From assembly GCF_000372725.1 (NCBI RefSeq), contig NW_005201223.1:342657-400329 (forward strand): a DNA stretch of 57,673 nucleotides, given 5' to 3'. The position numbers and the translations under genes are program-made. Shown here one piece after another: positions 3,524-44,158 of the stretch; the stretch's first letter is position 1, and the number at the start of each line of letters is the position of its first letter. The notes beneath the pieces were generated by a model. That model saw only the letters and a list, made by a program, of their open reading frames with translations. It searched no databases and had not been told where the DNA came from. The DNA comes from Emiliania huxleyi CCMP1516. Lineage: Eukaryota.

Positions 3524-5546
3524 TCACGAGCCGGCAAGCGTGCAGATGTAGCAGCGGATGTGCGGGTGCGCCGTGGCAAAATCCTCGAGCATCGCCTCGT
3601 ATGTCGCCCAGTTGCCGCCCGCGAGGCCGCAACCGATCTGGTGTGGAAAGGCGACCGACGCCGGTGCGGGGGCGAGGCGCCCGATGGCGGCCAGGCCGTC
3701 GCGGAACCACTGCTGGCGGGCGGCTGCCGTGTCGACGACGCCGGCGGGCGGCGGCACTCGGTTGTACTTTCCAGCGGCGCCCATCTCCCACTGCGCAAAC
3801 AAGTTGATCACCCACGGCCGCCCGAGGCCGCCCGCGGCCGCCGGCGTCGGCGGGCGGCGCACGTCGATCGTCCCGGGCACGGCGCGATCCTCGGGGCAGG
3901 CGAATCGGCTGGAGGCGGCCTTGCGGCGGTCGGCGTAGCTGCTTCCGTACGGCAGCTTGCGCGCGACCGCGTCGGCGAGCCCGCGACCGTCGCAGCCGAC
4001 GCAGTTGCACTGCTGCGCGATGGCAGTCACGCGGGCGAGGATGGCGTCGTCGAGCACGCCGCCGCGCAGCGTGAGCCGCTCGACGCCCGCGTGCAGGGTA
4101 CGAGGAGGGGCGTCCGCGGGAGGAGGGTGCCTGGCCCGCTTCCGGCAAGCGGGCTCCTCCTCCTCCTCGTCGTCGTCTAGCACGATGGGCGCGTCTTCCG
4201 CCGATCCCGCGGGGGCTGGGCCGGGCCGGGGGGCGGCGGCGCCGGGGCCCCCGCCGCTGCTGCCGCTGGCGGCGGCGCTGCCGCCGCCGCCGGCTCTGCC
4301 GCCGCCGCCAGCACTGCCGCCGCCGCCAGCACTGCCGCCGCCGCCGGTATCGCCGGACGGCGAAAAGAAGCGCCGCAGCCCCTCCGCCTCGCTGCTGCTG
4401 CTGCCACCGCCTGCTCCGCCGCCTGCTCCTCCGCCGCCAGCGGGGGCGAGGCCGATGCGGCCCGCCGCCTGCTTGAGCGGTCCGACCTCCCCGCCGCCAA
4501 ACGAGACGAGGTGCACCTGCTCGGGGGTTGAAGTTGAACGCTTGTGTGGAGGAGCACACCTCAGGACCGTGTGAGTGAGTGAGTGAGTGAGTGAGTGAGT
4601 GTGAGTGAGTGAGTGAGTGTGAGTGTGAGTGAGTGAGTGTGAGTGTGAGTGAGTGAGTGTGAGTGAGTGAGTGAGTGTGAGTGAGTGAGTGAGTGAGTGT
4701 GAGTGTGAGTGAGTGAGTGTGAGTGAGTGAGTGTGAGTGTGAGTGAGTGAGTGAGTGAGTGTGAGTGTGAGTGAGTGAGTGTGAGTGAGTGAGTGTGAGT
4801 GTGAGTGAGTGAGTGAGTGAGTGTGCGTGCGTGCGCGCGTGCATGCGCGCGCCTCCTCCAGGCCAGGGTAGGCTCCCTCCCGGATGGCGCGGCACGCGAT
4901 CGAAAGCAGGTCCACAAGCGGCTTTGGGCCTGCGGGCGGCTCACAGGGGCGGGGGGCGGGGGGTGGGGGCAGCGCGCGCGTGCGTGCGCGCAAGCAGCGC
5001 GGCTCTCCGCAGCAGGGCGGCAGGGCAGTCGGCAGGGCGACTTGCACGGCAGAGTGCACTCGCGGACGGGTGTGGACTGGGCTGCGCTCTGGCGCGCACA
5101 CCGCGGAAGAAGCCCGCGGAGAGGAGCGAGAAGGCGAGGGTCCGGACTCCGTGCTCCTTGGCGCGGTGCATCGCGCTCAGGTAGGCGGAGTGCAGCTTCT
5201 CCTCGCCGTCCGGCGCCACCTTCTGCACCCACTGCGCCTTGGGATTGAAGTTTGGCCCGACGGCGTGAATCACGTGCCGGCAGCGGAGATTGCCGCCGAC
5301 CGTGACAACGGCATCGCCGACCGGGCAGCGGACGTCGCGCGTCCCCGCGCGGACCGGCAGCTGCTTGCGCGCCTCGATCAGCGCCGGCCCGCCCGCTTTG
5401 TTGACCGCGCCGTCGACACCCTTGCCGTACAGGCACTTTGTGTCGGCCGCGTTGACAATCGCGCAGCCGTCAAACGCGACGAGGTTGCCCTTCGACACGC
5501 ACAGGGCTCCGTGCGGGAGCTGGTAGCGAGCCACGGTGGTGGTCAT
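3524..5546 (-). CDS. double macrodomain protein (N-terminal MacroD/YmdB-type, C-terminal Poa1p/TARG1/DarG-type), 3 exons
   Basis: Exon 1 5546-5102: IVNAAD, GKGVDGAV, HVIHAVGP, LLSAGFF. Exon 2 4929-~4853. Exon 3 from ~4516: QQCNC, INLFAQ, FPHQIGCGLAGGNW. GT-AG and GC-AG introns restore the frame. Confidence 0.85.
4570..4822. repeat. (GAGT/GAGTGT)n microsatellite in intron 2 of the macrodomain gene
   Basis: seen directly in the sequence. Confidence 0.95.
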
Positions 5547-5575
5547 GGCGGGATAGCAGCCTCGTTCTCCGGCCA

Positions 5576-5637
5576 GGGTCGCCGCCTGGGTCGCCGCCTG
5601 AGTCGCCGCCTGGGTCGCCGCCTGGGTCGCCGCCTGA
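5576..5637. repeat. 12-bp tandem repeat (GGGTCGCCGCCT) x5
   Basis: seen directly, just upstream of the macrodomain ATG. Confidence 0.85.
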
Positions 5638-7098
5638 TGAGTCGTCTGCGCGACAGCGGTGGGTTTTGGTGTTTTTTTCTTTTGAGAGCGCCTTCGTTGT
5701 GATCTGTGATCTGTGAGGGTCCGCCCGCAGGCGCATTTTGTATACCGAGGCGGTGCCCGGTGCCGAACCTGTCGGACCTTAAGACAGCGTTGTAGATCCC
5801 TGGGCGAGGGTGATGGCGTCCCCGTCGGGAGGGGCTGTCTGGCGGAGGAGAGCAACCAGGTGCCCGGCGGCGTCCCGCCACATCCGGATGACCTCTCCTC
5901 GTTGTGCCAGTCAGCCCCGTTGGAGGTAGGCCGCTCGTCTAGCCAATCAGCCTTAAGCGAGCGGCCTGGCCGTTGGAATGGCCGGTTGGAGAGAGGGGCG
6001 GAGTCGGCTCGGAAGCGCGACTGCAGCCACGAGGACTGCCCGCCCACTCTCGTCGGGTTGAGGGGAGGACGGCTGTCTCCGACGGCGAACCTCAGTTACG
6101 AGCCGCCCTCCCCCGATGCGGACATGCGGGGTTCGGGAAGGTCTATGACCTACCTAGTTAGCCGACATTCTCGTGGGGATTGAAGTGGTCTGACCAGTAA
6201 GAAGACGGGTCGAGGCCCTCCGTAGGCTCGTGAGGCGTCCCTCGTCCCTCTTCAATAGAGGGATAGGCATCTGGACCCAAAGGTTGGTGCCCAGCAGGTA
6301 TGAGTGGTGAGCCGCGTGCACGGCTCTGCGGTATTGCTGATCGCGGGTGAGGTTGTAAAGCCATCCTCAATCCGTGTGGCGGGCGTGGGAAAGAGCATTG
6401 TCCGAATTGCGGCGGACGTCCCTTCGTCCTGTCCTTCGTTGTTACAACTGTAATAGTACAAACCCAATGGTCTCTTGCGAGCGGTCCGTCGTTGCAGTCG
6501 CACACACTCACACGCCACGCCTCACCGCGCGCCCACCCGCTGTCCCGCCCAGGCGGGAAAGAGATGTTTTTTTTGTCCCCACATCTCGCAGTTCGACATA
6601 TCAGCGCCCGCGCGATGGAGAGAGGGGGGGAGACTCATCACAGGGTACACCGTCTCCGATCGAGGCCGGGGCGCGAACAATAAGCATCGGTTCGCGCGCG
6701 GATCCGTGCCCTCAGCCTAGAGTGAGGGCCGATCACACCTCCCCGGACCACGCTCATGCCGTTCCTCCCTAGGGATACATCCAAAACATGCAACGCTGGG
6801 ACAGCGAACATGCAGCCTCATCCTCACGGCGGGCGAGGGCACTCATTCGCGGCGGCGTTGGCGGCGGCGACCGCGGCGGCGGCGGCGGCGTTGACGGCGG
6901 CGGGCGCCACGACGCACCGCCGCTGTGCGTCCTGCGCCGGGAGCCTGTCCGACGCGTGCCTACGACACGTCCGGGGCATGTCTGGGGGCGCGTGGCAGAC
7001 GTGTCCCGCACTGCTCCGTCCGGGCGCGTGCCTCGACGGGGGAAGCTGCCGGTCCAGCGGGAGGCTGCGGCCAGCGGGAGGCAGGCCGTCGTCGAGGC

Positions 7099-9344: not shown

Positions 9345-10239
9345 AATGGTTGGGTAGTAGGGCTAGAGGGTCGCTCTACACTTAGCCTCTGCAGCGAGCG
9401 AGCGCTCAACTTAGCCCCCGCACGGAGCCGGGCTCAGACTTAGACGCTGGAAGGCCGGGGGCCATGAACTTAGACGACACGAGGCCAACTCCGGGCAAAA
9501 CCCGGGTATACCTGCAAAAGTCCAGGTTTACCCGAAAAATACCTGGACGCGGTCCCGACCAGCGTATGCCGCGCACGACGCCATATCACCGTCTCCCAGG
9601 GCCAGTGCGCTACTTGCGGCGCGCAACGCCTGCTCAAGTACGCGCACCGTACCATGTGCTGCCGCTATGCGTGCCTTAACGCTATGCGTGCCTTAAGGCG
9701 GCTGCGGCGAAGCGGCGGGCGCGGCATGCCGATGGCAGTGCGGACGATGCGGTTGCGATGTGTTCTGCTTCAAGATTGTGGCGGTGCTTGGCATGCACTT
9801 CTGCGATCCCAATCAGCTCATCGCAACGAAGCAGCGCAACAAGCTGGCTGCTGCCAACAAGGCCCTATGCTACCTCACGCGCGGATCGTTCAAAGAGGAC
9901 CAGCATACACAGGCTTCTCTGACATGCGTTTGTTTGAGCTTGAGGCTATTTGTGAGAACTATTTGGCTAGATGTCGCCGAAGTGCGCTCAAGAAGCAGCA
10001 ACGAGAATCGGAAGAGGAGGATGCTGAGGCGGCGATTGCTAAGCATGAGGAGGATCGATCGCCCGCCGCGCAGGCGAAGAAAATTTGGGCGCGAGCGCCG
10101 TATATCGCGTGCCATGGCCGACTTAGCCGGTGTAAGAGGCTCCCGCTGATCTTAGACCGCGTAAGCACTCCAGCGTGGCTAGCCACACTTAGACCCGTTA
10201 AGCCGCGAGGCTCAGAACTTAGACTACTACCCAACCAGT
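9345..10239 (+). mobile_element. non-autonomous hAT-like DNA transposon with a transposase remnant
   Basis: TIR AATGGTTGGGTAGTAG / CTACTACCCAACCAGT (15/16); 8-bp TSD ATTCTTTC at 9337-9344 and 10240-10247; subterminal ACTTAG repeats; internal LIATKQRNKL..ALCYL resembles the hAT dimerisation motif. Confidence 0.85.
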
Positions 10240-10432
10240 ATTCTTTCTATGGACTATGGTCTATGCTTTCTATGAGGGGGCCCTGCCGCAGAGGCGATTC
10301 GACATTCGTGAGAGGCGCGCACCACATGCAACGTACGTACAAAATCTGCCTGCGGGCGGCGACGCTCACAGCTCACAGCTCACAGCTCACGTGGCCTAGC
10401 ATAGCCTATCGTCGGCGACGTACGGCCGCCCG

Positions 10433-10527
10433 AGCGCTTTCCCTCGGTCTGTTAAACCTGAGGTCGTGGCCGTTTGGTATTCTCAGCCCCCCGCCGCACT
10501 GGGAGAGGTCGGGCTCCGGCAAGCGCT
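10433..10527 (-). ncRNA. TPP (THI-box) riboswitch-like aptamer in the SDR 3' UTR, variant
   Basis: Minus-strand RNA: P1 AGCGCUU/AAGCGCU; P2 GCCG/CGGC; GAG-CCC...GGG-CUGAGA; ACCUC-A-GGUU-UAACA-GACC-GAGG-GA. Element order matches the TPP aptamer architecture. Confidence 0.75.
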
Positions 10528-10546: not shown

Positions 10547-11896
10547 TCAGGGCATCGTCAGCCCGCCATCGACCGACAGGCTCTGCCCGGTCACCGCGTT
10601 CGACGCGTCCGAGGCGAAGAAGACGCACGCCTGTGTGTGTGTGTGTGGCAGCGCCGCCTGCTTGAGTGTCGACGTCTGTGCTACTCCCTCTTCGACGCGC
10701 CGCCGTTCAGCGGTGGTCCGGCTGTTCCTCCCCTCGATCTACTTCTGTCAGTGGGCAGGTGATTGGGAGGCAGGCCGGCGGCGTGCCACCCACCGCGATC
10801 GAAAGGCGAGTGTCGTCTCCGGGTGCTCTCAGTCGGCGGCCGATTGCGCGTCGTGCAAATCGACGCGTTGGACCGTGCGTACATCTACCTGCACGCCTCG
10901 GCAAAATCGTTGACCGTCGTCGTCTTGCGCAGTGGCGTGCCGGCGGACACAAAGCCAAACACCTCCTTGGTCGTTAGGGCCGACGCGTCGGTCGTCTCGA
11001 GCAGGCCGCCCGCCACCAGGTTGACGCGCACGCCGGACGGCCCCAGCTCCGCGGCGAGGTTGCGCGTGAGGCCGACGAGCGCCGCCTGCGGGAAGGCTCA
11101 AGGAAGTGTCTGGGCAAGGGGCTGGGTGGTGCGCGTGAGGCCGACGAGCGCCGCCTTCGCCGCGGTGTAGTCGTAGTACGTGACGACAGGGTTGTACACC
11201 TGCGGCGTGAACTCACCAATGTCAGGGTGTGAATACGGTGTCGTGCAGCATCGCGTGCATACACCGGCTACAACTAGAATTGAGAATACAGTTGATTGCG
11301 TGTCCTCTCTAGTGCTCGCCGGGACACACGGATCTGTATAACCATCTAGGGCTGTCGACGAGGTTGGAGCCGATGTTGACCACCTTCCCGAACTTGGACG
11401 CCTCAAACGAGGGCAGCGCTGCCTGCACCATGTTGACGGCGCCGGCGAGCGTACCTCTCATCTGCTGCTCCAGGTCCTCTGTCGACACCGTCTTAATGCT
11501 CGCCATGGATGAGCCCGGGTCGAACTTGTAGCGGGGCAGCGCATTGTTGACAACGACGCTGACCTTCCTGCCAAAGTGCGTCTCGGCATCAGCGACCAGC
11601 TTCACCATGTCCTCCTTGACCGTCACGTCGCCCTGCGCGGCGAGGGCGCGCGACGGCCACGCGGCGTTGATCTCGGCGGCGACGGCTTCGCCCTTCTCCT
11701 TGCTGCTGAAGTAGTTCACCACAACAAACGCTCCCTCACGGGCGTACACCCGTGCGAGCTCGGCTCCAACGCCACGCGATGCGCCAGTGATGACGGCGAG
11801 CTTTCCCGCCAGCTGGCCGACGGCCAGAGAGGAGGAGTCGGCGCACTCCTCCTTTGCGAGTGCGGCGAGCAGGCTGCAGCAGAGCAGGAAGGGCAT
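10547..11896 (-). CDS. classical SDR, 3-oxoacyl-ACP reductase paralog (PRK08642/OarX-like), 4 exons, possible signal peptide
   Basis: TGASRGVG, VVNNA, NIGSNL/VYNPVVTYYDYTAAK/AALVGLTRNLAAELGPSGVRVNLVAGGLLETTDAS...TPLRK/ACVFFAS..VTGQSLSVDGG. Confidence 0.9.
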
Positions 11897-12753: not shown

Positions 12754-12923
12754 CGGTTGGTATAGCTTTTGGGATACGAGCGGCATTGCTTGAAAAAGAA
12801 TTTTACAAAACTCCCTCCTAACTGGGCTTTACTGGCGTGTCACTTGAAAAAGAAACAATGCAAGCCCACGCGCCGCTCCTGCTCTCGCCTCCGGTTGCGG
12901 ACTGCAAAGCGCGCCTCTAGTGC

Positions 12924-14444
12924 ATGTCGGGCAGGCGCCCAGATCCCCTGCTGCGAGAGTCTCCGCCGGGGCCGCGGACACGCTTCCCGGCTCCGGCCGC
13001 CCTCTTCGGCGCGCCGGCCATCCTGCCCCCGCGGCACGGATCCAGCGGCGACTCTGCTTTCCTGTCCATCGTCCTGGAGGAGTTTGATCGCAACGCCTTT
13101 GAGATCGCGCTCCTTCCTCACGTCGCCCTCGCCTGCAAGAGGGCGCTCGCATGCACGTGCTATGCGCTACGCGAGCGCCTCACCCCGCACTTGCGTGCCG
13201 CGACGCTCTCTGTCCTGCGGGACGACGCCGTCTGGAGCAACGCCCTCTTTGTGGCCAGGCTGCCCGGTCTGTCGGACCTGCGGGTTGAGGGCGAGACGAG
13301 TCTGCCCTCGATGGATCTGGCGCGGTACAGGCGGCTGGAGGCGCTGAAAGTCGGCGCCCTCAGCACGCCCGCGGCCCTCTTCTTTGGCGCCGCCATCGCC
13401 GCATCCAACGCACGGCTGCGGCTCTCTGATGGCAACGCGATTCGTAACATTGCAGCACTGCGATCGAGCCCAAGCCCCGACAAGGCAGAGCCAAACGCGT
13501 CGGACGCCGACCGCGCCGCGTTGCTCGGCGCGTTGGCTTCAAACCAGCACGAGATCTTCAGCGCCCTCGACGCGCTATCGTACGCGAGCGGGGCGCTCGG
13601 ACACGACAGGGAGGTGGTGCGAGCTGCGGTCCGGGAGGATGGCACGGCGCTCGAATACGCATCTAGCGAGCTGAGGGCGGACAAGTCCATCGTGATGGAC
13701 GCGGTGCGGACCGGCGCGACCGGCGCCTGGCCCGGCGCGTGGTTGGGCCTCGCCAGCGAGGCGCTCCGCGGGGACAGCGAGGTTGTGCTCGCGGCGGGCA
13801 CACGGTACGTAGCGCGGGCATTGTCGTATGCGACCGACGCCGTCAAGGAGGACCGGGCCGTCGTGCTCGTGGCTGTCCGCATGGATGGAATGGCGCTGCG
13901 CTATGCGGCGGGCAGCATCAAGGGGGACAGGGAGGTGGTGCTCGAAGCGGTGCGACAGTCGGGACAGGCGCTGCAGTACGCGACAGGCTCCCTCAGGGCG
14001 GACAGGGCTGTCGCGTTCGAGGCGGTGCGGCAAGACGGGGACGCACTGAGATGGGCGGGGGCGGTCATCAAGGCGGACAAGGACGTCGCTCTGGCGGCGG
14101 TGAGGAAGGAAGGGCGGACCCTGGAGTTTGTGGCGGAAGCCCTGCAGGCAGACAGGGAGGTGGTGCTTGCGGCGGTGGATCAGGCCCAGGCTCGAGCCCA
14201 GGCAACCTTTCGTTCCACCCTCGCCCTCATTGCCAGGGCCGGGGCAACAGGGACAGTCCTGTCAGCCTCCGCCACCCTGAGGGCGCACTTGCGGCAGGTC
14301 CTGCTGTACGCGCGCGATCGTCTCTTCGAGGACGATGCGTTTGTGCTCGCGGCGCACGAGCATGCCAAGGCGATCTGGACCACGCCTGCAAACGATTTGC
14401 AAGACATGCGCGAGCGTCTGCGCCTCCTCAAGGAACTGGTGTGA
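12924..14444 (+). CDS. DUF4116 repeat-containing protein
   Basis: Intronless 506-aa ORF with about 7 repeats of DREVVLxAVRxxGxALxYAxxxLRAD. Confidence 0.85.
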   Translation: MSGRRPDPLLRESPPGPRTRFPAPAALFGAPAILPPRHGSSGDSAFLSIVLEEFDRNAFEIALLPHVALACKRALACTCYALRERLTPHLRAATLSVLRDDAVWSNALFVARLPGLSDLRVEGETSLPSMDLARYRRLEALKVGALSTPAALFFGAAIAASNARLRLSDGNAIRNIAALRSSPSPDKAEPNASDADRAALLGALASNQHEIFSALDALSYASGALGHDREVVRAAVREDGTALEYASSELRADKSIVMDAVRTGATGAWPGAWLGLASEALRGDSEVVLAAGTRYVARALSYATDAVKEDRAVVLVAVRMDGMALRYAAGSIKGDREVVLEAVRQSGQALQYATGSLRADRAVAFEAVRQDGDALRWAGAVIKADKDVALAAVRKEGRTLEFVAEALQADREVVLAAVDQAQARAQATFRSTLALIARAGATGTVLSASATLRAHLRQVLLYARDRLFEDDAFVLAAHEHAKAIWTTPANDLQDMRERLRLLKELV

Positions 14445-30362: not shown

Positions 30363-30763
30363 AGCGTCTAAGCGTGTCGGAAGTGCTGAACTCCTTGAAG
30401 ACAAGGAGGCCAATTGCACCACACCTCCAAGGAGAAGGAAGAAGGCATTGGGTAAGCAGATCCCGGCCATAAATTTGGTAGCCAATACCTGACGTGCATA
30501 ACCCACCGACCCGTTAAGCCGTTGTGTGGCGGCAGCCTGCCTGGGTGCCTGCCGCAGACTGCCGGCTGCCGCCTGCCAGGGGCCGATGGCCGTGGGGGGG
30601 CGGGGTTTCTGTTCTTTCCCTTGAAGAGCGGGTTGAAAAAAGAAAAAAATACAAAAACCCGAGCCTCCTCCGACTTGAAGGCAAAGTCCTACGACCTTGG
30701 CACCGACCGGAGGACATCTCTCGACCCGCGACAACGCCCCAGACGCGTGTATCCAGCTCGCAC

Positions 30764-32134
30764 ATGACAACCGTCGCCAAGCTTTTCGCCCTCCCGCTCG
30801 TGCTGGCCATGCTCCTCGTACAGCTCACCCTCATTCCGGTCATGCTTCCGGCCTTTCTCGTGCTGCTCTCCTCCAGCGCCCTGATGGCCGGCGCCTTGAA
30901 GCTCCTTCACCCGACGCAGACGGACGAGGTGACAAATGAGGAGTTCTACGGCTCCATTCTTCTGCTGCACATGAAGTCGGCCTGGGCGGCGCTCGCGGGC
31001 GTGGTCCTCGCCATCGTCGGGCCGTTTCAGATGGTCTCCGCCCTCGTCAGGTCCGCCGGCTCGCGGCCGGCAAACACGCTGCGGCCAACCTCGGTGCTGA
31101 TCACGGGCGCCAGCAGCGGCATCGGCGCCGAGCTCGCTCGTCAGTATGCAAAGCCCGGCGTCCGCCTCGTGCTCACCGCACGGCGGGTAACAAAGCTGGA
31201 CGCCGTCAAGGCGCAGTGCGAGGCGCTCGGCGCCGTGGTCACCGCCGTGCCGGCGGATGTGACGGACGCAGACATGATGGCGTCCGTCGTGGCCGCCGCG
31301 GACGAGGACGCGCCGCTCGACCTCGTGGTCGCAAACGCAGGCTGCTCCGAGTCGAACGTGCCCGGCGGCTCGCCGCTCTGGCACAAGGCGGGCGTGGTCA
31401 ACTCGACCAACGTGATGGGCACCGTCAACACAGTCAGCCCGGCGATGGAGCGGATGGTGGCGCGCGGGCACGGCCAGATCGTCATCATGGCGTCCGTGGC
31501 GTCCGCGGGCTCGAGCACCAACCCGTCAAGCGTCTCGTACGCGGCGAGCAAGGTGTGGGGCCGCGCCTATGGGCAGGGGCTGCGCGGCGCGCTCAAGGGG
31601 ACGGGCGTGGGCGTGACGACCATCTGCCCCGGGTTTGTGGACTCGGAGATGGTGGGCGGCAAGGACGCGCGCAAGTCGGGCTGGCTGCCGTCGACCAACT
31701 GCCCCGGCTTTGCCAAGCGCTTCCTCGAGTCGATGACGATGCCGACCGACCAGGCCGTGCGGCACATGGTTGCGTCCATCGGGCGGAACGCGGGCGTCGT
31801 CACCCTGCCCTGGTGGTACCTCGCCTCCCTGTGGGCGCCGCAGATGCCGCACTACAACCTGATGCCGCCCTTTGTCGAGTACTGGCTCGCGCCGTCCGGC
31901 CAGGTCAAGCCGCCCGCGCCGGCCGGCACCAAAAAGGCGTTCCGCGCGCCGTCGTCGTCCGAGGAGGAGGACGCGTCGAGCCCTCGCATCACCGAGAGGA
32001 CGCCCAGCGTGTCGTCGTCCGAGGAGGAGGACATGCTGCCCTCCGCGAGCCCCTCGCTCCGCAAGCTGCGGCGTGCGGGCCGCGCGGTCCGCTTCTGCGT
32101 GTCGCACCTGGACGGCCTGCAGCTGTCCAGGTGA
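30764..32134 (+). CDS. short-chain dehydrogenase/reductase with N-terminal membrane segments
   Basis: ITGASSGIG, VANAG, MAS, YAASK, CPGFVDS. Confidence 0.9.
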   Translation: MTTVAKLFALPLVLAMLLVQLTLIPVMLPAFLVLLSSSALMAGALKLLHPTQTDEVTNEEFYGSILLLHMKSAWAALAGVVLAIVGPFQMVSALVRSAGSRPANTLRPTSVLITGASSGIGAELARQYAKPGVRLVLTARRVTKLDAVKAQCEALGAVVTAVPADVTDADMMASVVAAADEDAPLDLVVANAGCSESNVPGGSPLWHKAGVVNSTNVMGTVNTVSPAMERMVARGHGQIVIMASVASAGSSTNPSSVSYAASKVWGRAYGQGLRGALKGTGVGVTTICPGFVDSEMVGGKDARKSGWLPSTNCPGFAKRFLESMTMPTDQAVRHMVASIGRNAGVVTLPWWYLASLWAPQMPHYNLMPPFVEYWLAPSGQVKPPAPAGTKKAFRAPSSSEEEDASSPRITERTPSVSSSEEEDMLPSASPSLRKLRRAGRAVRFCVSHLDGLQLSR

Positions 32135-34436: not shown

Positions 34437-34526
34437 TTTTGGGCCCGTAAATTCTTCCGGCCGGAAGGACCCGCCTGGCCTCCTTGAGCGCGCTATCGGC
34501 TCCTTCTAAGAAGCAACCAGCTCAGA

Positions 34527-35552
34527 ATGCTGCCCCTCGCGTGCGTCCTCGCCACCGTATTCGCTGTGCTCGCCACCGTGCTCGCACTGACGAAGAAGCT
34601 CACCGCTCGCCAACGGTGGAGTCCTCGCGAGAAGACTATCGTGCTCACTGGCGCCTCCTCTGGCATCGGCTCGTCTCTCGCTAGAACCTACGCCGCGCAG
34701 GGAGCCAAGCTCTACCTTGTGGCTCGGAGGCGTGAGGCGCTCGAGGCGGCCTGCGAGGAGTGCATGGCGGCGGGCGCGAGCAGCGCTAAAGCGGTGGTGG
34801 CCGACGTCTCAAGCGAGAGCGGCTGGGATGCGATCCGCAGCGCCATTGGAGACGACACCGTCGACTTGCTCGTGCTCAACGCCGGGCTCTCCATGGGCTC
34901 GCCGTTTGCCTCGCTGAGCGAGCGCAAGGAGGCGATGGGCATCATGAAGCACCTGATGGACGTCAACTACATGGGCGCGGTCGGCGTGCTCGACGCCTGC
35001 CTCGGTGCCATGCGGCAAGCGGAGGGCGGAGTCCGGCTGCTGGTGGTGAGCAGCGTGGTGGGCCTCGTGGCGCCGCCCACCCGGACCGGCTACGCCGCCT
35101 CCAAGTTTGCGCTCAAGGGCTTCTTCAATGCGCTGCGTGTCGAGCTCGGGATGAGTGAGCAGGTGCCGCCCACGATCACGCTCGCCTATCCCGGCGCGGT
35201 CAAGACAAACATCAACCGCGCGCGCCTGCGGGGCGGCGTGGACGGCGGCAGCGGCGCGGTGGACCTCGAGCTCGACAAGAGCATGAGCGCCGACCGCTGC
35301 GCCTCGATCATGGCTCGCGCTCACGCGGCGGGGTGCCGGGATGTCTACTATTCCATCGACGGCACTCGGGTCGGCGCCGTCAAGACGAGGCTCCTCCGCC
35401 ACCTCGCCTTCTTCTTCCCCGCCGGCGCCGACAAGGTGCTCGCAAAGAGCATCGGCGCGATGAGCAAGTCGCGCAGGCAGGTCAAGGGCCTGCTCAAGGG
35501 CGTCGCCAAACTCGTCATCGCCAGCTCTCGCTTCCAACCCACGCCCTCCTGA
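34527..35552 (+). CDS. SDR, DHRS7/11beta-HSD-like, with N-terminal anchor
   Basis: LTGASSGIG, LNAG, VSSVVG, PTRTGYAASKFALKGFFNALRVE. Confidence 0.9.
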   Translation: MLPLACVLATVFAVLATVLALTKKLTARQRWSPREKTIVLTGASSGIGSSLARTYAAQGAKLYLVARRREALEAACEECMAAGASSAKAVVADVSSESGWDAIRSAIGDDTVDLLVLNAGLSMGSPFASLSERKEAMGIMKHLMDVNYMGAVGVLDACLGAMRQAEGGVRLLVVSSVVGLVAPPTRTGYAASKFALKGFFNALRVELGMSEQVPPTITLAYPGAVKTNINRARLRGGVDGGSGAVDLELDKSMSADRCASIMARAHAAGCRDVYYSIDGTRVGAVKTRLLRHLAFFFPAGADKVLAKSIGAMSKSRRQVKGLLKGVAKLVIASSRFQPTPS

Positions 35553-42281: not shown

Positions 42282-44158
42282 ATGGCGACAGTCGTAATGA
42301 AAAGCTTCGCACTCGTCGTGCTAGCGCTGGCCGCCGCAGAGGCGCTGCAACTGCACCCCGCCGGCGCTAATGGCGCTGTGCGTACCGCCGGCGCTATTGG
42401 CGCTGTGCGTACCGCTGGCGCGCTGCGTCCCGCCGCCCGTCGCAGCGGCGAAATTCACCTCCTCGACAAGAAGGGCGAGGCGCATAGCACCGTCGTCTTT
42501 CTGCGCCACGGGCAGAGTACGTGGAATGCCGACTCGCTCTTCACGGGCTGGGCCGACGTCGAACTGACGACGCTGGGCAAGAACGAGGCCGCGGGCGCCG
42601 CGGCGACCCTCTGGAAGGAGGGCATCGAGTTTGACGTCGCCTACTGCAGCCGGCTCAAGCGTGCGAGGCAGACGCTCGAAATCGTGCTCAGCATCTCCGG
42701 CCAGGAGGAGGTGCCTGTCAACGCGTGCTGGCGACTGAACGAGCGAATGTACGGCGGGCTGACCGGTCTCAACAAGAAGGAGACGGCCGCCAAGTATGGC
42801 GACGAGCAGGTCAAGCGGTGGCGCCGCTCGTACGACGTCCCTCCTCCCCCGGTCGAAAAGGACTCGCCGTACTACCCGGGCAACAACCCGCAGTACTACC
42901 ACATCCGGGAGGAGGAGCTGCCCCTGTCAGAGTGCCTTAAGGCGCGCGCCCGGGCGGTGGCGGCCGGTGGCGGCGGCGGGCGGCGGTGGTGGTGACACAG
43001 ACCTGCCGCCGTGACACACAGCCCTGCAGCCAAGTGCCTCTCGCACTGGCTCCTCCCTGCCGAGCCATCCTCCCGCGCCGCCTCCTCGCCCTACTACACA
43101 GGACACGCTCGAGCGCACGCTTCCCTACTGGGAGAGCGACATCGTGCCGGCGCTGACCAAGGGCAAGACGGTGCCCGAGATCACCCGAGATCACCCGAGA
43201 TTACGAGCACTCCTCTTGTCGGACGCTCTGTTGCCGTAGCGCGCGCACGGAGAGAGACGAGCGCGCCGTGCGGTTCCGGGGTGCTCGTAATCTCGGGTGA
43301 TCTCGGGTGATCTCGNNNNNNNNNNNNNNNNNNNNNNNNNNNNNNNNNNNNNNNNNNNNNNNNNNNNNNNNNNNNNNNNNNNNNNNNNNNNNNNNNNNNN
43401 NNNNNNNNNNNNNNNNNNNNNNNNNNNNNNNNNNNNNNNNNNNNNNNNNNNNNNNNNNNNNNNNNNNNNNNNNNNNNNNNNNNNNNNNNNNNNNNNNNNN
43501 NNNNNNNNNNNNNNNNNNNNNNNNNNNNNNNNNNNNNNNNNNNNNNNNNNNNNNNNNNNNNNNNNNNNNNNNNNNNNNNNNNNNNNNNNNNNNNNNNNNN
43601 NNNNNNNNNNNNNNNNNNNNNNNNNNNNNNNNNNNNNNNNNNNNNNNNNNNNNNNNNNNNNNNNNNNNNNNNNNNNNNNNNNNNNNNNNNNNNNNNNNNN
43701 NNNNNNNNNNNNNNNNNNNNNNNNNNNNNNNNNNNNNNNNNNNNNNNNNNNNNNNNNNNNNNNNNNNNNNNNNNNNNNNNNNNNNNNNNNNNNNNNNNNN
43801 NNNNNNNNNNNNNNNNNNNNNNNNNNNNNNNNNNNNNNNNGCGAATCACGCGAGATCACGCGAGATCACGCGAGATCACGCGAGATCACGGCACGCGAGA
43901 TCACGCGAGATCACGCGAGATCTCCCGAGAGGCGCTGCCGGGACGCCGAGGCGAGTGCCGTGCCAGCTCCCGTTTGTGTGCAGTGGACAGGGCCTCCCCC
44001 CCCCCCCCCCCCACACCTTGCGTGTTGTGGAGGAGTGTGTGCCTCGCACCTCGCCGCAGGTGAACGAGATCTTCGAGATGGTCGACCGGAACGGTGACGG
44101 CCGAATAGACTTTGAGGAGTTCGTCCAGGCGATTACGGCCGAGAGCCTCCCCCGATAG
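42282..44158 (+). CDS. gpmA: 2,3-bisphosphoglycerate-dependent phosphoglycerate mutase, likely plastid-targeted, possible C-terminal EF-hand (middle hidden by an N-gap)
   Basis: LRHGQSTWN, FTGWADV, WRLNERMYGGLTGLNK, WRRSYDVPPP, SECLK/DTLERTLPYW; last exon 44060-44158 has DRNGDGRIDFEE. Confidence 0.85.
43176..43315. repeat. intronic inverted repeat built from CGAGATCACC units
   Basis: 43176-43210 is the reverse complement of 43281-43315. Confidence 0.85.

Follow-up and report, generated by a model that had tools for sequence, protein, structure and literature searches.

OarX, a short-chain dehydrogenase/reductase (SDR), was reportedly flagged as a thiamine gene by Rodionov in 2002. The family (NCBIfam PRK08642/NF006393) has been surveyed by Oliveira-Filho, Rodionov and Hanson (2024, PMC11223231), and according to the available parts of that paper its reaction is unassigned family-wide. 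The 87 genomes of the survey are all bacterial, and the gene clusters with thiOSGF, tenI, thiM, thiV, and ykoCDE, so that a thiazole or thiamine substrate was favoured. Work in C. glutamicum ruled out five compounds as substrates (PCA, MTA, oxo-HET, oxo-thiamin, thiamin acetic acid), and the deletion of oarX-fmnO gave no phenotype (PMC11223231). The original prediction stated that some bacterial members are under THI-box control, and the link of OarX to vitamin B1 in bacteria is already published (PMC11223231). In the OarX table of the survey, read by eye, ThiM is blank in 14 of the 87 genomes and ThiD in 2 (PMC11223231). In algae, TPP-type aptamers are described in the 5' or 3' UTRs of THIC, THIM, SSUA/THI5-like, SSSF, SSSP, SSSQ, ATS1, and UNK1, and SSSP is given as the only novel riboswitch gene of E. 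huxleyi in the accessible text of McRose et al. (2014; PMC4260697). Two reports describe haptophytes as devoid of THIC and, with few exceptions, of THIM as well; HMP, AmMP, and UV-degraded thiamine support the growth of E. huxleyi (PMC5635689, PMC4260697).

Here we describe an OarX-type gene in a window of the genome of the bloom-forming alga Emiliania huxleyi CCMP1516, the window being the whole stretch of 57,673 nt that was analysed. The gene lies at 11896-10547 on the minus strand, and its four exons encode a protein of 284 aa (Table 1). Exon 1 is 100% identical to EMIHUDRAFT_68908 of this strain and by itself has PRK08642 as its best match. The joints of introns 1 and 2 were spanned by RNA contigs in all three runs and were absent in the DNA run. 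Intron 3 was also removed in one poly(A)-library contig, which runs to 10240 through the whole 3' element, and it is spliced in the MMETSP protein P0288, which equals the spliced product at 283 of 284 residues. Contigs from all three RNA runs cover intron 3 as well, and a 260-aa MMETSP form, P0004, exists. Retention of intron 3, as seen in these three runs, is real and truncates the protein at about 260 aa. The public model EMIHUDRAFT_68908 has 296 aa and carries two small insertions, because the GC donors were ignored. Both GC-AG introns start with a copy of the next exon's start, of about 27-30 nt in intron 2 and 6 nt in intron 3, and the copy of the exon 3 start that opens intron 2 is near-perfect (30-nt direct repeat, 97%). 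This arrangement suggests intron gain by tandem duplication and a source of misleading gene models. Downstream, perfect 14-nt inverted arms lie 863 nt apart at 9347-10237, with a high-depth repeat at 10200-10240; this is probably a MITE-like element, and the contig of the gene's 3' UTR ends there.

Table 1. Features of the E. huxleyi OarX-type gene in the window, and the gene order at three bacterial oarX loci.
Feature	Position	Strand	Description
Exon 1	11360..11896	-	aa 1-179; leader, TGASRG cofactor loop, NNAL motif, catalytic Ser177
Leader, 26 aa	11819..11896	-	hydrophobic signal-peptide-like stretch, acidic linker with conserved Cys (hydropathy heuristic)
Intron 1	11200..11359	-	GT-AG, 160 nt; joint in 3/3 RNA runs
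Exon 2	11155..11199	-	aa 180-194; NPVVTYYDY loop, catalytic Tyr190-xxx-Lys194
Intron 2	11086..11154	-	GC-AG, 69 nt; joint in 3/3 RNA runs
Exon 3	10897..11085	-	aa 195-257
Intron 3	10631..10896	-	GC-AG, 266 nt; spliced and retained forms
Exon 4, coding part and stop	10547..10630	-	aa 258-284
Exon-start copies at GC-AG introns	11061-11159; 10891-10896 and 10625-10630		
Divergent TPP-riboswitch-type aptamer	10430..10527	-	3' UTR, 98 nt, 20 nt after stop; inside spliced poly(A)-library contig
L091 (Bacteroidota)			thiM-oarX-thiE-thiD
L125			thiM-thiE/thiL-thiD-oarX
L024			TPP-oarX-TPP-NMT1

The rest of the window encodes a Macro domain protein (4944-6095), a DUF4116 protein (12921-14441), a nucleotide-sugar transporter, a histidine phosphatase, an AAA ATPase, and an ABC transporter. 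Two further SDR genes on the plus strand (30518-32131 and 34488-35549) are unrelated to OarX, and no thiamine genes were found among the 80 window ORFs scanned. An apparent low-GC bin at about 43320-43840 is an assembly gap of Ns between short tandem repeats.

The original prediction held that the spliced protein follows the PRK08642-type group, and our results agree with this. P0288, scored in place of the window product from which it differs at 1 of 284 residues, reached 313.7 bits against a cut-off of 292, and the NF006393 cut-off was also passed by all 9 homologs tested. The motifs that had been quoted are present as NPVVTYYDYTAAKAALVGLTRNLAAELG, GGLLETTDAS, and TPLRK. PRK08642 can be equated with OarX, because the C. 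kroppenstedtii match P0111 passes the PRK08642 model and is identical throughout to one 60-residue line in the curated list of OarX proteins (PMC11223231 supplement). The E. huxleyi protein shares with bacterial OarX a score above the family cut-off, the NNAL, NPVVxYxDY, and GGLL motifs, and an association with TPP aptamers. However, its gene is eukaryotic and spliced, encodes a signal-peptide-like leader, has no fmnO and lies in no operon, and its aptamer is in the 3' UTR (the 5' UTR in some orthologs). The protein also falls in a subclade with the motif VVTYYDY, whereas its sister, the curated proteins, has VVPYHDY.

In a tree of 49 rows, picked from the 104 rows of a quicker tree, the 19 algal rows formed one clade (support 100/99) nested among bacterial proteins of the VVTYYDY type; its sister (98/81) is a group that includes the Bacteroidota locus L091. 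The curated OarX proteins were the next branch outside these two groups, and FabG was placed far outside. The algal records are named Calcidiscus, Prymnesium, Pedinella, Corethron, Triparma, Rhodomonas, Prorocentrum, and Gymnodinium, some of these transcriptome labels possibly standing for prey or contaminants. The simplest reading of the tree would be a single early transfer from bacteria to an alga, with later spread among red-lineage algae; the horizontal transfer suggested earlier is supported in that a bacterial origin is likely. Two diatom-labelled proteins, P0092 and P0350 (Cylindrotheca closterium; Bacillariaceae MAG), group with L091 outside the main algal clade, reflecting either a second, recent transfer or contamination. 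In addition, the C-terminal domain of P0290, a two-SDR protein with the label Carpinus fangiana, falls with OarX of actinobacteria; P0290 is possibly a separate eukaryotic acquisition, perhaps from a fungal contaminant. It was the only two-SDR protein in a weak fusion search of 7992 scored candidates, which gave no informative partner.

The structure predicted from the public 296-aa sequence has the Rossmann fold of SDRs and a pLDDT of 83; no solved OarX structure was found, and the best sequence match among structures had an E value of 7.7e-26. The classical SDR features TGxxxGxG, Ser/Thr177, Tyr190, and Lys194 are kept. In SDRs, an Arg in the cofactor loop and the absence of an acid after strand 2 indicate NADP(H). 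The cofactor loop TGASRG carries Arg41 and no acidic residue follows strand 2, and we therefore infer the use of NADP(H). At the helix-4 position of the catalytic Asn, the OarX rows have residues of the T/A/S/V type and the four FabG rows have N, and Asn178 and PVVTYY are invariant in the 62 aligned homologs.

By a hydropathy heuristic, the hydrophobic N-terminal leader seen in the original prediction is real and conserved, being found in 41 of 95 homolog records, 35 of these with the acidic-Cys linker; it is short or missing in 47 (there is redundancy among the records, and the start is wrongly called in some). Cleavage is predicted near Ala14, and a 12-aa acidic linker follows the hydrophobic stretch. 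Proteins imported into complex algal plastids carry a signal peptide with an aromatic +1 residue and then a basic, Ser-rich transit peptide. Of the two destinations proposed, the secretory pathway is consistent with the apparent signal peptide and short acidic Cys linker, and the plastid seems less so, as the leader does not look bipartite; by this heuristic, the leader looks better suited to the secretory pathway than to the plastid stroma. The orthologs P0012, P0013, and P0019 have Arg-rich, acid-free leaders that resemble mitochondrial presequences, and targeting may vary within the algal clade. Haptophyte NMT1/ThiY-like proteins likewise have signal peptides, according to the available part of PMC9544697.

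Evidence for a B1 link comes from the algal orthologs. Twenty-three algal-type loci were obtained from metagenomes, and 20 were given to Rfam, which returned sense-strand TPP matches in the 5' or 3' UTR of 11 (E 3e-10 to 0.022; 3 above gathering). Three of the 11 aptamer-bearing contigs have GT-AG introns in the gene. P5 covaries in a model-fitted alignment, with 13 cells changed on both sides (0 of 500 shuffles). By covariance model, 8 of the 23 loci gave no aptamer, some of the UTRs being short. Because the algal orthologs carry canonical TPP aptamers, the link of the gene to B1 is stronger than could be seen from the window. Aptamers of the 5' UTR lie at the 5' ends of L018-L020, at 67-167 in L006, and at 166-258 in L010; in L006 and L010 the 3' end of the aptamer abuts the start codon, suggesting possible translational control. 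L019 begins with what we take to be the end of the dinoflagellate spliced leader, although the clade of L019 includes a record with the label Eutreptiella braarudii. The algal oarX genes and the eight genes of McRose et al. have in common a TPP-type aptamer in a 5' or 3' UTR; however, no SDR is among those eight in the accessible text, and its supplement may bear on novelty (PMC4260697).

The element of E. huxleyi itself is divergent. It was undetected at gathering or at E<=10 in an Rfam scan of the window, and a sequence-only nhmmer profile also misses it. However, a covariance model built from 10 homolog aptamers, with the window copy excluded, ranked 10527-10430 on the minus strand first in the 57.7 kb at 12.8 bits (a rough E of 0.0095), the next match having 6.8 bits, and the THI-box-like RNA proposed at the gene therefore exists. 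Most of this score is due to the P1-P3 half and to the nearest relative of the element, L001. A regular-expression pattern also had a single match in the window, which is not independent since the pattern was written knowing the element (1.66 matches expected per shuffled window). Like the TPP riboswitch RF00059, for which orthologs score up to 63 bits, the element has P1, P2, P3, CUGAGA, and P4. Its pyrimidine-sensing half is kept, with a P1 of 7 bp, P2, P3, and CUGAGA at 10486-10481. In TPP riboswitches, the P4/P5 arm, with the G of J4/5, a P5 of 4 bp, and the CG and bulge of J5/4, binds pyrophosphate. In the window element this arm is shortened and P5 has 3 bp, with the CG of J5/4 kept without a bulge; the J4/5 G, found in 15 of 15 other aptamers compared, is C, and the P4-internal segment has 14 nt as against 15-19 nt in the others. 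The TPP-like fold lies 2.3 kcal/mol above the minimum, and the element is no more stable than shuffles (folding z -0.17).

Other contigs share only the aptamer (10426-10527): a 488-nt record matches over 84 letters, at 6 of which it differs, and a record of 1657 nt matches over 48 letters. The flanks of the aptamer-bearing contigs diverge at 10527, 10478, and 10426. Several near-identical versions of the divergent aptamer thus seem to be present in other E. huxleyi transcripts. The E. huxleyi riboswitch on SSSP also lacks one P5 pair, according to the available text of McRose et al. (2014; PMC4260697). Because of these copies and the SSSP riboswitch, the variant may be species-wide rather than a single decayed copy. 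The chance that the degenerate 3'-UTR aptamer still binds a ligand is about even. Splice-site masking of the plant THIC type was also considered, and pairing of the aptamer with the intron-3 donor (-15.4 kcal/mol) and acceptor (-12.9 kcal/mol) was no better than with other splice sites; thus no link of the aptamer to intron-3 retention is supported. Pairing of the aptamer with exon 4 (-25.7) was uncontrolled and is not claimed as meaningful.

For the bacterial relatives, THI-box and tenA/thiM neighbourhoods had been suggested as a check; a B1 context was seen at L091, L125, and L024 (Table 1) and not at most near relatives. Across 20 bacterial loci, for which 60 of the 120 neighbouring ORFs were scanned, thiamine genes were near oarX in 3. 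Rfam TPP matches were present in 6 of 19 near-relative loci, and our own pattern in 15 of 137. No B1 context was found in the Psychrobacter or cyanobacterial loci scanned, and a Psychrobacter neighbour suspected of binding thiamine was PotD-like. In the Chlorobiota-type loci L081, L023, and L024, an alpha/beta hydrolase lies downstream of TPP-oarX (with NMT1 between in L024), and this is a candidate for a further B1-salvage enzyme.

A sister group of OarX was found next to Lux genes. Among 401 sampled genomes of one phylum, 28 had LuxC, and 15 of the loci were widened. All 8 loci of one LuxC subfamily (L203-L210) have an OarX-family SDR that is sister to curated OarX and the algal clade, and the other 7 of the 15 have FabG-like, not OarX-like, SDRs. 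The operons read luxE-luxC-ABC(NMT1)-OarX-like, the NMT1/ThiY protein being part of an ABC importer; in the five loci scanned, luxC was found in five, luxE and the NMT1/ThiY protein in four (E<=1e-15), and thiE in one. Rfam TPP matches above gathering occur at 2 of the 8 loci and our own TPP-like pattern upstream of 7.

Taken together, a role of the E. huxleyi enzyme in B1 metabolism is probable, and the reduction of a carbonyl or aldehyde with NADPH appears somewhat more likely than not. As the substrate we propose the pyrimidine aldehyde 4-amino-2-methylpyrimidine-5-carbaldehyde (HMP-aldehyde), a serious candidate whose chances fall a little short of even. LuxE and LuxC convert an acid to an aldehyde. 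Because this pair precedes the SDR, an aldehyde would be the substrate of the OarX type and the corresponding alcohol its product, and the ThiY-type protein accompanying the Lux-OarX operons points to the pyrimidine side. The likely product is narrowed to the same side by the occurrence of OarX with TPP aptamers in algae without THIC and THIM. The enzyme would enter the secretory pathway and use NADPH to reduce HMP-aldehyde, an oxidised B1 fragment, to HMP, which would re-enter thiamine synthesis. With B1 plentiful, the mRNA would be turned down, provided that the degenerate aptamer still binds its ligand. LuxC was not found in any of the five bacterial genomes nearest the algal clade, which are incomplete; the algal enzyme is thus assumed to act on the free aldehyde, of abiotic or oxidative source. 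The pyrimidine aldehyde is not among the five compounds excluded in the available text of PMC11223231, and the failure of the acid in C. glutamicum would follow if that strain lacked the Lux pair.

Several results count against this proposal. The usual catalytic Asn of SDRs is replaced, and a place in the secretory pathway would require that NADPH be available to the enzyme in the lumen. A pyrimidine substrate is further opposed by the thiM genes of the nearest operons and by the survey, which, in its available parts, favours thiazole or thiamine and reports the oarX-fmnO deletion without phenotype (PMC11223231). The same family and B1 link might serve a thiazole-side substrate or oxidised whole thiamine, such as thiazole acetaldehyde, a ring-opened ketone, or a thiochrome-type product, and we regard this as somewhat unlikely. 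The thiM of L091 and L125 and the published clustering with thiOSGF, tenI, thiM, thiV, and ykoCDE speak for it; however, four substrates of this kind (MTA, oxo-HET, oxo-thiamin, thiamin acetic acid) were excluded in C. glutamicum (PMC11223231), THIM is nearly absent from haptophytes (PMC5635689), and the Lux-linked sister operons carry an NMT1/ThiY-type protein. Moreover, the ThiM column is blank for 14 of the 87 OarX genomes, and ThiM was found in 2 of the 5 near bacterial relatives, whose genomes are incomplete. TPP aptamers normally repress at high TPP. Such repression suits supply genes, and together with operon partners for synthesis and uptake and an NADP(H)-type motif that suggests reduction, it weakens the reading that the enzyme is not for salvage but a B1-regulated dehydrogenase that detoxifies or degrades a thiamine antagonist or a product of thiamine breakdown. 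We consider this role improbable, although SDRs are reversible, a secretory location would suit incoming compounds, and loss of oarX-fmnO left growth unaffected in what is available of PMC11223231.

Two other readings set the gene outside B1 metabolism. It may have drifted from B1 control in E. huxleyi, leaving a decaying aptamer and a general carbonyl reductase, as the shortened P4/P5 arm, the missing Rfam match and folding signal, and the many bacterial OarX relatives without B1 context would suggest; predicted diatom TPP aptamers are also unresponsive to thiamine in the available part of PMC9544697. However, P1, P2, P3, and CUGAGA are intact, the TPP-like fold is close to the minimum, other RNA contigs contain almost the same element, a riboswitch short of one P5 pair is known from E. 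huxleyi (PMC4260697), and the protein has 87% identity to the nearest aptamer-bearing ortholog, so that drift seems unlikely. The reading as the plastid 3-oxoacyl-ACP reductase of fatty-acid synthesis (FabG) is one to which we give almost no credence, as the sequence already refutes it. FabG (TIGR01830) and other classical NADPH SDRs have the Rossmann fold, TGxxxGxG, and Ser-Tyr-Lys in common with OarX, automatic database names of the homologs read FabG, and FabG structures at about 30% identity topped a fold search. However, P0288 scored 138.8 bits against the TIGR01830 cut-off of 297.75, and the OarX protein has NNAL where FabG has NNAG, the replaced helix-4 Asn, the invariant Asn178, and the PVVTYY loop. 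Its leader shows no apparent transit-peptide-like stretch. The original prediction had named grouping with canonical plastid FabG as part of the outcome that would speak against it; the protein instead falls in a separate clade, and an AU test rejected a clade with two cyanobacterial FabG (p 2.7e-30) in a tree that holds no algal plastid FabG.

The family and its B1 link in bacteria are already known; what appears to be new is the divergent E. huxleyi aptamer and the extension of OarX to eukaryotes. No report of a eukaryotic OarX, a riboswitch-linked algal SDR, or aldehyde salvage was found in a search largely outside subscription papers, and SDR terms had no match in the five supplements of PMC9544697. 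A eukaryotic, spliced, partly signal-peptide-bearing OarX clade with TPP aptamers in its UTRs thus appears to be unreported. The fullest form of our proposal would be that one salvage enzyme for HMP-aldehyde, of bacterial origin and under riboswitch control, is common to algae of the red lineage (haptophytes, dinoflagellates, diatoms and relatives, cryptophytes), and that in E. huxleyi a TPP-aptamer variant without the pyrophosphate sensor has come to lie on several mRNAs, reading thiamine or a pyrimidine vitamer instead of TPP; as a whole, this is speculative and unlikely to hold in every part. OarX, flagged since 2002 and left without a reaction after five obvious substrates were excluded, now has one named substrate candidate. 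An enzyme class would be added to the short list of eukaryotic riboswitch targets, and the degenerate, multi-copy E. huxleyi aptamer offers a natural test of a TPP riboswitch without its pyrophosphate arm. If the proposal is true, a 20-year-old puzzle would be solved and HMP-aldehyde would be an unmeasured vitamer of seawater. One more B1 vitamer would then be expected in surface waters of the ocean, whose phytoplankton communities are held to be shaped by the use of such vitamers.
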